64,000 bases of DNA, taken from positions 80,466-144,465 of the forward strand of contig CAZIDF010000008.1 in NCBI GenBank assembly GCA_964538085.1, in the 5' to 3' direction. Shown here piece after piece: positions 59,204-64,000 of the stretch. Each line of letters opens with the position of its first letter. Within the stretch, counting starts at the first letter, position 1. A program made the position numbers and the translations under genes. This DNA comes from an uncultured Eubacteriales bacterium (GTDB taxonomy: Bacteria > Acidobacteriota > Aminicenantia > Aminicenantales > Aminicenantaceae). Below the pieces are notes generated by a model. The model was given only the letters and a program-made list of their open reading frames with translations. It made no database searches and was not told the DNA's origin.

Positions 59204-59297
59204 ATTCGGGGACAGGATACGTTTTCACTTAATTCTGTGCTGAGATACTTGATACCTTAATCATGATATGGAATAATTCGGTACCTGTTCCCGAATT
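59204..59297. repeat. inverted repeat AATTCGGGGACAGG (59204..59217) / CCTGTTCCCGAATT (59284..59297), 13/14 match, about 66-nt spacer
   Basis: It lies in the divergent intergenic region between the esterase and cupin genes. The left arm is part of a motif shared with 45301..45325. Confidence 0.7.
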
Positions 59298-59321
59298 AGA
59301 GTTATAACAAGGATAAAAGCA

Positions 59322-59681
59322 ATGGAAAAAGTCAATTTAAGCGAAAAATTCAGTTTATTCAAGGAAACCTGGACACCTAAAATCGCCGGTGAACTCAACG
59401 GGCAGTACGTCAAACTGGCCAAAACCAAAGGGGAGTTTGTCTGGCACAAACATGATACTGAAGATGAGTTTTTTCTTGTCATAAGCGGCACTTTGACCAT
59501 CAAACTCAGGGATAAGGACATTCGACTCGATCCAGGAGAATTTCTCATCGTCCCCAAAGGCATCGAACACAAACCCGTCTCAGAAAATGAGGCCCACGTC
59601 TTGGTATTCGAACCAAAAAACACAAAACACACCGGAGATGTCGAGAGCGAGATGACCGTTAAAAAATTCGACTGGATTTAA
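59322..59681 (+). CDS. cupin-domain protein
   Basis: It is 119 aa with the cupin motifs HKHDTEDEFFLVISG and PKGIEHKP. Confidence 0.7.
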   Translation: MEKVNLSEKFSLFKETWTPKIAGELNGQYVKLAKTKGEFVWHKHDTEDEFFLVISGTLTIKLRDKDIRLDPGEFLIVPKGIEHKPVSENEAHVLVFEPKNTKHTGDVESEMTVKKFDWI

Positions 59682-59776
59682 TCCCCTCTCTAGCAATTGG
59701 GGGATAAAATCCTTTGTCCTTTCAGCATGCAAAAATAGGGAAACACATATCCAGGTACCGAATTAAAAAAAAATGT

Positions 59777-59805
59777 TTGACAGAAGTTGCATTTTTTTTT
59801 ATTAT
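59777..59805 (+). promoter_or_regulatory. sigma70-like promoter TTGACA-17-TATTAT upstream of the helicase gene
   Basis: TTGACA is at 59777..59782 and TATTAT at 59800..59805. The next in-frame ATG (59816) would then be about 4-6 nt from the transcript start. Judged by eye. Confidence 0.35.
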
Positions 59806-59815
59806 GGTGAACAAA

Positions 59816-62161
59816 ATGGTGAACATACGGATCTCAGTCCGGGCTCTGGTCGAACATCTCCTCAAGAGAGGCGACCTATCGATGAGTTTCGATATTGCCG
59901 CGCGGACATCCCTATTCGCCGGCAACCACGCCCATCATAAGATCCAAAAATCCCGGCCAGAACCCTATACCGCCGAAGTACCCGTTTTTTATCGAGTCGA
60001 TAACGAACGCATCGTTCTCGACATCCAGGGACGGATCGACGGACTGTACGAACTAGCCGATTCCGTGGTGATCGAAGAAATAAAGACCACCCGAAAAGAC
60101 TTGGAAGGTTTCATAAAACAAAACAGCGAACTTCACTGGGCCCAGGTTAAAGTGTATGCTGCGATCTATGCGATCGAAAATAACCTGGATCGGATACTCG
60201 CTCAACTCACATACGGCCACATAGAAACTGGGGAGGTCAGGACCTATTTCCAGGAATACAATACAGATGAGCTCCGCATGTTTTTTTTGCATTTGCTGGA
60301 ACAATATTTCCAGTGGGTTGAAAAGATCCAAGATTGGCATGAGGAGAGGGATCGATCGATCTTCACATCAGATTTTCCCTTCGTGTCCTTCCGCAGCGGT
60401 CAACGCCAAATGATCGAAGACGTTGCCGCCATCATCGAACAGGAAGAGCAAATCATCATCCAGGCCCCAACAGGCATCGGTAAAACCGTGGCCGTCCTTT
60501 ATCCAGCCATCAAAGCTATAGCCGAAGGGCACATCCAAAAGATGTTTTACCTGACGTCGCGTACAACAGGACGCTTTATCGCTGAAAAAACTTTGATAGA
60601 GCTAAAAAAAAGCGGACTCCGCATAAAATTCGTGACATTGACCGCCAAGGAAAAGATCTGTTTCAACCCGGAAAAAAATTGCACTCCCGATGAATGTTCT
60701 TTTGCCAAGGGATATTATGACCGCTTCGTCGAAGCCCGTAAGTCCCTGTTTGACGAAGAAGCCTTCACTGCCGACAAGATCGCTGAGATTGCCCGTGTCC
60801 ACCAAATCTGTCCCTTCGAATTTTCACTCGACATGGCGCTTTGGGTGGAGTGTATCATCTGCGACCTTAACTATGTGTTCGATCCAAGGGTGTGTCTCCG
60901 ACGGTTTTTCCTGGAAAACCCAATCGATTGCACCATTCTCGTAGACGAAGCTCACAATCTCGTCGACAGGTCAAGAGAGATGTACTCCGCTAAAATCGAT
61001 AAAACAGATTTCTTGAAAATCCGGCGTCTCCTCAAGAACAAAGAATCCGAGCTCTATCGAGCAGCAGGAGAGGTCAACAGGCAAATGTCGGAAATGAAAA
61101 AAACGCTCGAAGAGGAAAATAGCGCTTGGCAGGATGAACGCCCCGAAAAACTCCTTCCCCCTCTCAGGCATCTTCTCACGAGCCTCGAACGCTGGCTATC
61201 TTCCCACCCAAGCTCCCCCCAAACCCAAGAGATGCTCGATCGCTACTTTGCGGTAAACTGGTTTCTAAGAGTCTCTGAACTTTACGATAAAAACTATGCG
61301 ACTTGCCTCGAACAAACTTATCGTAATTTCAGCACAAAACTTTATTGCATCGATCCTTCCGAACATCTCCGTGAGACTTTCGAACGGGTCAATTCATCCG
61401 TTCTTTTTTCAGCGACCATCACACCCATGTCCTACTTCGCTCAGATTTTTGGATTAAAGGATTCGGTCGAAAAACGGATTCTCCCCTCTCCTTTTCCCCA
61501 AGAAAACCTGTGTGTCCTCGTTTCTGATTCTGTTTCCACACTCTACAGACACAGGTCTCAAACAAAAAAAGCTCTGGTTCAGACCATCGGTTCTCTGGTC
61601 GAAGCCAAAAAGGGAAATTACATGGTTTATTTCCCTTCCTATGAATACCTGCAGATGGTGCATCCTCTGTATGAAGCGGCCTTTCCCCACCACAAAATCC
61701 TCATGCAGACACATGAGATGAGAGAAGACGAAAGAGTGGACTTCCTATCTAATTTCTCGGAAGAAAACGATCACAGCCTCGTGGGTTTTGTGGTGATGGG
61801 AGGTATTTTCGGGGAAGGCATCGATCTGGTCGGAGACCGGTTGACAGGAGCTGTCATCGTCGGTGTCGGATTGCCCGGAATTTCGCTGGAAAGAGAAATG
61901 ATCCGCCATCATTTCTCTGAAAACCAGCTCTCCGGTTTCGACTATGCTTATCGCTATCCAGGGCTGATCCGCGTGTTTCAAGCGGCAGGTCGGGTTATAA
62001 GAACCGAAAACGACCGTGGAACGATACTCTTGATCGATCCTCGTTATTCTCATCCCCAGTATAACGAACTGTTTCCCCAGGAATGGCTGGTCCAACCGGT
62101 ACAAAATCACGGTCAGATCCGGCAGATATTGGATGAATTTTGGGTTGAGCCAAAATCATGA
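59816..62161 (+). CDS. fusion of an N-terminal Cas4/RecB-like PD-(D/E)xK nuclease domain with an XPD/DinG-type (Rad3-like) Fe-S SF2 helicase
   Basis: Nuclease motifs are GRIDGL...VVIEEIKTT and QVKVY (QxxxY). Helicase motifs are Walker A QAPTGIGKT, a 4-Cys cluster (C-FNPEKNC-TPDEC...QICPFE), DEAH box VDEAHNL, and C-terminal helicase_C_2-like motifs. The upstream in-frame ATGs at 59714 and 59804 conflict with the predicted promoter. Confidence 0.7.
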   Translation: MVNIRISVRALVEHLLKRGDLSMSFDIAARTSLFAGNHAHHKIQKSRPEPYTAEVPVFYRVDNERIVLDIQGRIDGLYELADSVVIEEIKTTRKDLEGFIKQNSELHWAQVKVYAAIYAIENNLDRILAQLTYGHIETGEVRTYFQEYNTDELRMFFLHLLEQYFQWVEKIQDWHEERDRSIFTSDFPFVSFRSGQRQMIEDVAAIIEQEEQIIIQAPTGIGKTVAVLYPAIKAIAEGHIQKMFYLTSRTTGRFIAEKTLIELKKSGLRIKFVTLTAKEKICFNPEKNCTPDECSFAKGYYDRFVEARKSLFDEEAFTADKIAEIARVHQICPFEFSLDMALWVECIICDLNYVFDPRVCLRRFFLENPIDCTILVDEAHNLVDRSREMYSAKIDKTDFLKIRRLLKNKESELYRAAGEVNRQMSEMKKTLEEENSAWQDERPEKLLPPLRHLLTSLERWLSSHPSSPQTQEMLDRYFAVNWFLRVSELYDKNYATCLEQTYRNFSTKLYCIDPSEHLRETFERVNSSVLFSATITPMSYFAQIFGLKDSVEKRILPSPFPQENLCVLVSDSVSTLYRHRSQTKKALVQTIGSLVEAKKGNYMVYFPSYEYLQMVHPLYEAAFPHHKILMQTHEMREDERVDFLSNFSEENDHSLVGFVVMGGIFGEGIDLVGDRLTGAVIVGVGLPGISLEREMIRHHFSENQLSGFDYAYRYPGLIRVFQAAGRVIRTENDRGTILLIDPRYSHPQYNELFPQEWLVQPVQNHGQIRQILDEFWVEPKS

Positions 62162-63951
62162 ATAAAGAAAGATTGAACAAGCGAAAAAGCGATCTGAGCC
62201 TCAGAAAATTGACCGTGCTTGCCCTAGACTGCCAAGCTACCCACAGCAATCCCGAAATCGGTCGTCTATTCGAGATAGGCTGGGTAAATACACAAGCCAC
62301 TCCCCTATTCGACCATGAATTGACGGCTGAAAAAGTCAAATCACACTTGGTCACGATGGAGGACAATTTCCAGGTCCCCAAACAATTTCTTAGAATAACC
62401 GGGATAAAATCCGAGGAAATGAACGAGGCCATTTCTAAACGAAACACATGGCAAAAGCTCTATCGCACGGCAAAAAAAACGGCATCCAATAATCAGGGGA
62501 TATGCCCCGCCGTGATCCACTATAGCCGGTATGAAGAGCCATATCTCCAACACCTTCATCAGGAATTCGCACCCCAGCAGGATTTGCCGTTCACAATCGT
62601 CTGCACTCACAAGATTGTCAGCAGGCTTTTTCCCGGACTCCCCCGGAAAGGATTAAGGGCTGTAGCAGGTTATTTCGGATATTCCCTGCCAAATTTCAGG
62701 CGGAGCCTGCACCATGTGGTGGCAACTGCCTTTATTTGGAATCATGTAGTCCGGGTACTCGAAGAAAAAGAAAATATCACAACGTTTACTGGACTTCAGG
62801 ACTGGCTTAACTCCCCTGCTCCTCCTGCCCATTCCAAGCAATGGGAACGGGAATACCCGATGGAAAAGGCTCTTAGGCAAGACCTCCCGGAAAAACCAGG
62901 GATTTACAGGATGTACCGATCTTCAGGGGATTTGCTCTACATCGGGAAGGCAAAATCTCTCAAACACCGGGTGAACAGCTATTTTACCAAACGAGGACGG
63001 CATGCCGAGCATATCCTCGAGATGCTCAGCCAGGCTCGAACTCTTTCGACCACCGTGACACTGACAGCGTTCGAAGCAGCTATCAGGGAATCCGATGAGA
63101 TAAAGCTCCAATCTCCCCCGTACAACAGGGCTCTCCAACCAAATGAAAGACAACTGTATTTCTACCGCGAAAATCTCAAAAACAAACAAACAGAACCAAA
63201 CACAAAACATCCGGTCGGCCCCATTCCCTCTAATATCAAAATGGAATCGCTCGCAAAACTCCTCGATTTGCTAAATGCAAAGATAAAAAAAATCACCCCA
63301 CGCTTGATAGAGGAGTTGCTGGATTGTCCGCCAGAATATTCACCCGAAAAACAATGCTTTATCTCAGGTTTTGAAACATTCAAAAAGGAATTTTGTGTCT
63401 CCATCGAAACACCCGTAACATTAAACAAAATGATGAAATGGGGCACACAGTTCTGGCAGGAAAAATTAATTGAAAAGGAATCCGATATTGCGATAAGGGA
63501 TGCGGAAGAAACTCAAAAGGATGAAGATCAGAAAGAAATCGAGGAAGGCTGGACTCCTGAACGGGTTTTTAAGACTTTGAAGAGGAAAATCCGGATGGAT
63601 TCATACCAGATGCGTCGATCGCGGTGGTTCTGCCGCCTGAGCGAATCTCGCCTTGCTTGGACTAACACAAATGGAGCAGAAGAGGATAAAAATGTTCTCC
63701 TATTCGAGAATGGAACGATACAGTCTAACAATAGCGATCCGCTATCCAAAATTTCAGAGATTCCACCGGGACACCAAAAAACGCTCAATCAAAGACAAGC
63801 CAACTTCGATATCGCCACCTACGACAGGATGCGTATCGTCACGACCGAAATGCGTCGTATTATTCAAGAGGGTCGTGACATCGAGCTGACATTTCATCCA
63901 GGGAGCATTTTGAATAAGCAGCAGCTAGAAAAAATCTTGAAATGGATATGA
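62158..63951 (+). CDS. fusion of a DnaQ-like DEDDh exonuclease-fold domain (catalytic residues largely substituted) with a GIY-YIG nuclease domain
   Basis: Its start overlaps the helicase stop (ATGA). The exo-I-like motif is LALDCQATH (DxE to DxQ); exo II is IHYSRYEE; exo III is HHVVATA. The GIY-YIG motifs are GIYRMY...LLYIGKAKSLKHRVNSY, with downstream E and N. It is 597 aa. Confidence 0.7.
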   Translation: MNKERLNKRKSDLSLRKLTVLALDCQATHSNPEIGRLFEIGWVNTQATPLFDHELTAEKVKSHLVTMEDNFQVPKQFLRITGIKSEEMNEAISKRNTWQKLYRTAKKTASNNQGICPAVIHYSRYEEPYLQHLHQEFAPQQDLPFTIVCTHKIVSRLFPGLPRKGLRAVAGYFGYSLPNFRRSLHHVVATAFIWNHVVRVLEEKENITTFTGLQDWLNSPAPPAHSKQWEREYPMEKALRQDLPEKPGIYRMYRSSGDLLYIGKAKSLKHRVNSYFTKRGRHAEHILEMLSQARTLSTTVTLTAFEAAIRESDEIKLQSPPYNRALQPNERQLYFYRENLKNKQTEPNTKHPVGPIPSNIKMESLAKLLDLLNAKIKKITPRLIEELLDCPPEYSPEKQCFISGFETFKKEFCVSIETPVTLNKMMKWGTQFWQEKLIEKESDIAIRDAEETQKDEDQKEIEEGWTPERVFKTLKRKIRMDSYQMRRSRWFCRLSESRLAWTNTNGAEEDKNVLLFENGTIQSNNSDPLSKISEIPPGHQKTLNQRQANFDIATYDRMRIVTTEMRRIIQEGRDIELTFHPGSILNKQQLEKILKWI

Positions 63952-64000
63952 TAAAATTATTATTTTTAGCAGACACACATCTGGGATTCGATTATCCCTT

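Follow-up and report, generated by a model that had tools for sequence, protein, structure and literature searches.

A Cho-type GIY-YIG nuclease family with a conserved, non-canonical DEDDh site in its DnaQ-like domain

We analyzed a 64,000-nucleotide stretch of DNA (hereafter the window) from an uncultured bacterium that the GTDB lineage places in the Aminicenantaceae (assembly GCA_964538085.1, contig CAZIDF010000008.1, positions 80,466 to 144,465 of the forward strand), focusing on an open reading frame (ORF) near its end that encodes a DnaQ-like domain fused to a GIY-YIG nuclease domain. Alignments indicate that in the family to which this protein belongs the DEDDh exonuclease site has become D-Q-E-H plus Arg or Lys. 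We favor, with a probability of about 0.6, the reading that the N-terminal domain is a non-exonucleolytic module that binds a DNA end, a nick or a metal and positions the GIY-YIG nuclease. The parts of the ORF on which the argument rests are as follows.

62158..63951, plus strand: the whole ORF (597 amino acids), DnaQ-like, then GIY-YIG, then a family-specific C-terminal domain.
62203..62802, plus strand: DnaQ/DEDDh-fold domain, residues ~16-215, with non-canonical active-site residues.
62227..62235, plus strand: Exo I equivalent D24-C25-Q26 (canonical D-x-E).
62518..62535, plus strand: Exo II equivalent H121-Y-S-R-Y-E126 (canonical H-N-A-x-F-D).
62698..62715, plus strand: Exo III equivalent R181-R-S-L-H-H186 (canonical H-R-A-x-x-D).
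62881..63141, plus strand: GIY-YIG nuclease domain of the UvrC/Cho type, residues 242-328.
63142..63948, plus strand: C-terminal domain, residues 329-597.

The N-terminal domain has the RNase H-like DnaQ/DEDDh fold. An earlier note on this DNA had read such a domain at 62158-62760 (residues 1-201 of the ORF), ahead of the GIY-YIG domain, and PADLOC, NCBIfam and hhalign bear this out. The PADLOC DEDDh model matches residues 22-191 (E=1.5e-9), and the best NCBIfam match is PRK07883, "DEDD exonuclease domain-containing protein", over residues 16-337 (E=1.5e-34), with a score of 119 bits that is far below the model's 495-bit cut-off. Comparison by hhalign with canonical Cho+Exo proteins, which join an exonuclease (Exo) domain to a Cho-type nuclease, spans both the Exo and GIY-YIG domains (324 columns, probability 99.9%, E=2.3e-32). 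The single-sequence match to Pfam RNase_T (residues 22-174) is sub-threshold, at 16.5 against 24 bits, and was not used as evidence by itself. An AlphaFold2 model built from 61 homologues has a mean predicted local distance difference test score (pLDDT) of 88.8 and a predicted template modeling score of 0.83. Exuperantia, Pop2 and Maelstrom, all known degenerate DnaQ folds, are also among the matches listed for the domain. Source databases name members of the family "DNA polymerase III subunit epsilon" or "GIY-YIG nuclease family protein".

To place the catalytic positions, we searched a profile of 21 family N-terminal domains against PDB sequences. At Exo I, the family's "lDCqat" pairs with "LDFETT" of T. 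maritima PolC; at Exo II, "vihfsryeepfl" pairs with "VAHNVDFDLNFI" of S. aureus DinG; and at Exo III, "RRslhhvaat" pairs with "HRADEDAATT" of DinG and "HRAIYDAEAT" of PolC. A MAFFT alignment with the canonical Cho-like+Exo and Cho+Exo proteins of Tsukamurella, Cupriavidus, Acidithiobacillus and Persicobacter pairs DLETTG with DCQATH, HNARFD with HYSRYE, and HRALxDA with RRSLHHV, and profile-profile comparison with hhalign puts the catalytic positions in the same columns as the other two methods. The Exo I Asp is therefore kept (D24) and its Glu replaced by Q26; the Exo II Asp is replaced by E126, which retains a carboxylate; and at Exo III the general-base His is Arg or Lys (R181 here) and the Asp is H186. 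The earlier note had called the first two substitutions, and D24-C25-Q26 and H121...E126 recur in the search against PDB sequences, in MAFFT and in hhalign. Its reading of Exo III, with H186 as the general base and A191 in place of the Asp, did not hold: all four alignments set RRSLHH against HRALxD, and by the PDB search, MAFFT and hhalign that register is 5 residues off. The register with R181 and H186 also fits the predicted structure because the last helix begins at residue 183, which sets H186 in the first helical turn and leaves R181 in the loop before it; in epsilon, the Exo III Asp and the general-base His occupy these same two places. We considered a new Cys/His metal cluster (C25, C116, C149 and H151) and set it aside, as C149 also occurs in canonical homologues within an L-C-T motif. 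C25 is the strand residue between D24 and Q26, and by standard strand geometry its side chain should turn away from both.

Replacement of an acidic residue by its amide, or of Asp by His, at these positions inactivates DEDDh enzymes. With only two of the four carboxylates left and Arg or Lys in place of the general base, the canonical two-metal reaction is unlikely, and canonical 3'-5' exonuclease activity has probably been lost. On this point the earlier note's view that the canonical site is missing stands, and the refuting result it had named did not appear: profile alignment does not place intact Asp or Glu residues at all catalytic positions.

The altered site is strikingly uniform. We counted residues in 263 retrieved family proteins, over the sequences that cover each position, and found the signature DCQ...H-x4-E...(R/K)R-x3-H. 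D24 and Q26 are present in 255/255 aligned members, H121 and E126 in 261/261, H186 in 256/258 and R182 in every sequence that covers the position, while C149 is missing in one. Position 181 is Arg in 220 members, Lys in 34 and His in 3. None of the 263 proteins has Glu at 26 or Asp at 186. The substrate-groove motifs E39-x-G-W and ITG are kept along with H121, and by these counts the former active site is the most constrained part of the N-terminal domain. A distant clade on Legionella plasmids (28-35% identity) retains D-C-Q, H-x4-E and the His at 186, and the D-Q-E-H tetrad is therefore the constrained core. This pattern points to an old, selected and fixed state rather than decay, and a pseudogene reading is ruled out by full-length conservation and the invariant motifs.

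The family is also large. A word-index protein search returned 1532 relatives. When 1.84 billion cluster representatives were searched exhaustively with a profile, 502 clusters (50% identity) reached E<=1e-30 and 772 reached E<=1e-10. Of the 150 clusters listed, nearly all have lengths of ~550-640 amino acids; shorter members are probably fragments. A scan of GTDB species genomes identified 191 species with a relative, in phyla that include Aminicenantes, Desulfobacterota, Nitrospirota, Acidobacteriota, Planctomycetota, Omnitrophota, WOR-3 and Spirochaetes; the carriers include Desulfobacterales, Nitrospiraceae, Vicinamibacteria and other Acidobacteriota, Latescibacterota and Myxococcales.

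The GIY-YIG domain is fully intact and active-looking, as the earlier note had proposed. Pfam GIY-YIG matches residues 247-320 above threshold, with UvrC and Cho as the closest relatives. Seven catalytic residues (Y250, Y261, K264, R271, Y275, E311 and N323) pair with Y19, Y29, K32, R39, Y43, E76 and N88 of T. maritima UvrC and are invariant across the 61-sequence alignment, placing the domain in the UvrC/Cho branch. Residues 329-597 are conserved within the family and, modeled alone, reach a pLDDT of 90.3; no solved structural relative of this confidently modeled domain was found. The hhalign match to canonical Cho+Exo proteins ends at column 359, shortly past the GIY-YIG domain, so the family lacks their Cys-rich C4, UvrB-binding and Cho-CTD regions. 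A comparison restricted to the C-terminus recovered only an "FDxxTY" stretch (15 columns, E=0.063), which is not significant.

In the window, the gene lies between two others that bear on its function.

59714..62161, plus strand: upstream gene, a PD-(D/E)XK domain fused to an XPD/DinG-type iron-sulfur helicase.
63948..64000, plus strand: 5' part of a gene for an Mre11/SbcD-like metallophosphoesterase, which starts MIKLLFLADTHLGFDYP and runs off the end of the window.

An ATGA overlap at 62158-62161 sets the start codon of the GIY-YIG gene on the stop codon of the helicase gene, and a second, at 63948-63951, sets its TGA on the ATG of the Mre11/SbcD-like gene. From this arrangement the GIY-YIG gene appears to be translationally coupled to both. 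The helicase region matches DEAD_2, HBB, Helicase_C_2 and TIGR00604 rad3, and its N-terminus (59817-60400) is a RecB/Cas4-like PD-(D/E)XK domain with intact-looking motifs (GRIDGLY...VIEEIKT...QVKVYA), an architecture of which we know no characterized example. A sigma-70-like promoter-like site on the plus strand at 59777-59805 (TTGACA, 17 nucleotides, TATTAT; 11/12 positions) lies inside the helicase ORF as listed, making the TTG start at 59714 doubtful. Judged by the site's position, the start is probably the ATG at 59805 or 59817, and the helicase mRNA is likely to have a very short leader or none. At homologous loci the downstream gene encodes a ~355-amino-acid Mre11/SbcD-like metallophosphoesterase with all phosphoesterase motifs present, and the loci for which gene lists were inspected showed no Rad50/SbcC partner.

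The helicase/GIY-YIG/Mre11-like cassette recurs in Aminicenantes relatives (47-61% identity) amid otherwise unrelated neighbors, and is kept in Aminicenantes, Nitrospiraceae, Spirochaetes and some Acidobacteriota; at one WOR-3 locus the helicase is present and no Mre11-like gene adjoins. We counted linkage in 80 species loci, taking as denominators those with enough flanking sequence. The Mre11-like gene adjoins in 39/73, the helicase in 14/63 and both in 10/59. These counts bear on an alternative in which the N-terminal domain only docks the GIY-YIG nuclease to the XPD/DinG-type helicase, with the conserved residues serving a structural role, an arrangement that would mimic in trans the DnaQ-DinG fusion of Firmicutes. 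The adjoining, translationally coupled helicase gene in the window fits this idea. However, the helicase adjoins in too few loci, many genomes carry the nuclease alone locally, and conserved docking residues would not be expected to match the former catalytic positions one for one. We therefore consider docking alone unlikely. Separately, at four Desulfobacterales loci (L022, L036, L044 and L073) we observed Mre11-like fragments 3' of the nuclease gene, where tblastn covers the C-terminal ~100-200 residues; this suggests that the Mre11-like partner has been decaying or was replaced in that lineage.

The helicase and nuclease genes are also paired on three plasmids, of Legionella lytica, L. sainthelensi and L. 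longbeachae (L084, 4614-12481; L087, 278-13176; L088, 5612-13345). The plasmid helicase is 28% identical to ours over its full length and keeps the nuclease motifs (GRMDGIY, IEEIKT and QLQIY). The neighbors of the pair variously include Ku, UdgX, dinB, a Y-family polymerase with umuD, and an SOS-response-associated peptidase (SRAP), a context that argues for DNA-damage processing rather than phage defense. The three-gene context likewise points to DNA-damage processing. A defense role was nonetheless worth weighing, since a helicase with three nuclease domains is an architecture common in anti-phage and anti-plasmid systems, homologues reside on plasmids, and PADLOC models for DinG and DEDDh match at the domain level. 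Those matches are generic (CRISPR-associated DEDDh and type IV DinG) and do not extend to the system level: PADLOC's system-specific models did not account for all cassette components, and the Mre11-like protein has no PADLOC match. In addition, the surroundings, both in the window and in related genomes, consist of housekeeping genes that vary by lineage (in the window, an esterase, a GNAT acetyltransferase, a TonB-dependent receptor and a solute symporter), and the plasmid copies lie inside clusters of SOS, translesion and non-homologous end-joining genes. On this genomic context we rejected the defense reading, which we regard as very improbable. Just upstream of the cassette ends a short plus-strand ORF at 59500-59682, whose translation reads as cupin-like (...GEFLIVPKGIEHKPV...); it is shorter than the length cut-off of the wider ORF listing, in which the only ORF here is an overlapping one on the minus strand (59261-59632) that has no Pfam match.

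The protein descends from the known Cho-like+exonuclease fusion and would work like it. In the model we favor, the DnaQ-type domain would give up 3'->5' nucleotide removal, and its old active-site pocket would instead serve to bind a DNA 3' end, a nick or a phosphate, perhaps along with a single metal ion. This would position the intact GIY-YIG domain, which would make the cut. The co-transcribed helicase-nuclease may unwind DNA and stall at a lesion or structure, and the downstream Mre11/SbcD-like nuclease could take over the 3'->5' resection lost from the degenerate domain. Such an end-binding role, with labor divided among the Mre11-like and helicase partners, is probable on present alignments and gene context. 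The earlier note had proposed a probable pseudo-exonuclease that may serve as a DNA-end-binding or interaction scaffold. That is only one reading of a domain in which D24, Q26, H121, E126 and H186 are ~100% conserved in 263 homologues, and a DNA-end or metal-binding module appears more likely than a dead scaffold.

Several observations weigh against the favored model. The Legionella clade lacks R181/R182 and the ITG motif, which weakens a purely Arg-based phosphate-binding mechanism. Many Desulfobacterales carry the fusion gene alone, so the helicase and Mre11-like partners are not obligatory. Finally, Asp, Glu, His and Gln can each coordinate a metal, and some catalysis could persist; because the tetrad is both the most conserved feature and built of such residues, an altered or one-metal activity is possible. 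This leads to the alternative that the site was repurposed and is still catalytic, with D24, E126 and H186, together with Q26, binding one Mn2+, Zn2+ or Mg2+. Such a site might, for example, trim 3' ends that are blocked or modified once the GIY-YIG domain has nicked the DNA, as was first proposed for canonical Cho+Exo. The four metal-ligand positions are absolutely conserved, even in the Legionella clade without R181/R182; the Exo II change leaves a carboxylate; and H121 and the substrate-groove motifs are kept. His as the last ligand is, moreover, used in active nucleases of the RNase H fold, as in the DEDH tetrad of Argonaute. Against this, characterized DEDDh enzymes such as TREX1 lose their activity when just one comparable change is made (Exo I carboxylate to amide, or Exo III Asp to His), the general-base His has become Arg or Lys, or Asn in Legionella, and a 3'-5'-capable Mre11-like nuclease is often encoded adjacent, as expected after loss of activity. 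We hold continued catalysis to be a real but minority possibility and retain the binding module that positions the GIY-YIG nuclease as our preferred reading.

A bolder proposal, which we offer as speculation, is that the tetrad protein, the helicase-nuclease and a Rad50-less Mre11-like nuclease might form a new UvrAB-independent bacterial pathway of excision or end processing. The tetrad would then be a new site on the DEDDh scaffold, either a one-metal nuclease or a sensor of blocked or phosphorylated 3' ends, and the whole would be a bacterial counterpart of XPD-based damage verification, widespread in uncultured anaerobic phyla and mobilized on Legionella plasmids.

The long-standing account of the Cho+exonuclease fusion is "nick, then chew through the lesion". 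The present family would be a large sister family that keeps the fusion while its exonuclease chemistry is replaced by another strictly conserved residue set, a new domain stands where the UvrB-binding tail was, and an XPD-type helicase-nuclease and an Mre11-like nuclease accompany it. Should the rewired domain prove to read ends or nicks, bacterial repair would offer a clean natural case of an enzyme turned into a binding module; should it still be catalytic, the DEDD fold would gain a new type of active site. In both cases the family points to a candidate module for UvrAB-independent damage processing in many phyla that have been little studied, and it singles out a gene pair on Legionella plasmids of clinical relevance as accessory repair genes. 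The family's present annotations are misleading or uninformative.

Searches of the literature for the family, its residue pattern and the three-gene cassette returned no description. The nearest known proteins are the Cho-like+Exo and Cho+Exo fusions (M. tuberculosis Rv2191 type; PRK07883), which likewise place an N-terminal DnaQ-like domain before a UvrC/Cho-type GIY-YIG domain. Moolenaar/Van Houten described the fusion, and Dunin-Horkawicz et al. (2006, PMC1564403) classified it; according to the latter, the canonical C-terminus carries, besides a Cys-rich C4 region, UvrB-binding or Cho-CTD regions. The family described here differs in three respects. Canonical Cho+Exo proteins keep D-x-E, H-N-A-x-F-D and H-R-A-x-x-D, whereas this family has D-x-Q, H-x4-E and R-x4-H; an unrelated 270-amino-acid C-terminal domain stands in place of the canonical tail; and the partner genes differ, with neither helicase nor Mre11-like gene near the two canonical Cho+Exo genes whose annotated neighborhoods were inspected. 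In keeping with this, scores against PRK07883-type NCBIfam models are <=119 bits against cut-offs of 454-1038. Compared with E. coli Cho or the N-terminal half of UvrC, the protein has no UvrB-binding domain, and the EndoV/RNase H-like 5'-incision domain and (HhH)2 of UvrC are absent; the genetic link is to an XPD/DinG-type helicase and not to UvrAB.

Helicases are coupled to DnaQ-fold domains elsewhere, in B. subtilis MrfA/MrfB and in S. aureus DinG, the Firmicute DnaQ-DinG fusion, and the likeness extends to putative UvrABC-independent damage processing. MrfB and S. aureus DinG, however, hold an intact DEDDh site, and neither pair has a GIY-YIG or Mre11-like component; to our knowledge, MrfA is not an XPD-type helicase. 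Among degenerate DnaQ folds, the EXO-like domain of Exuperantia, Maelstrom (ECHC) and yeast Pop2 are eukaryotic RNA-binding or RNA-processing proteins with other replacement residues and no GIY-YIG fusion. A parallel in the residues themselves comes from the TREX1 disease alleles D18N and D200H/N, which do not degrade double-stranded DNA and act dominantly, and the DNA-binding affinity of D18N is reported to be essentially unchanged. These alleles hit the same Exo I and Exo III metal-ligand positions, and D200H is the same Exo III Asp-to-His change. In TREX1, however, they are pathogenic single mutations of an active enzyme, whereas in the family described here the changes are combined, ancient and under purifying selection.

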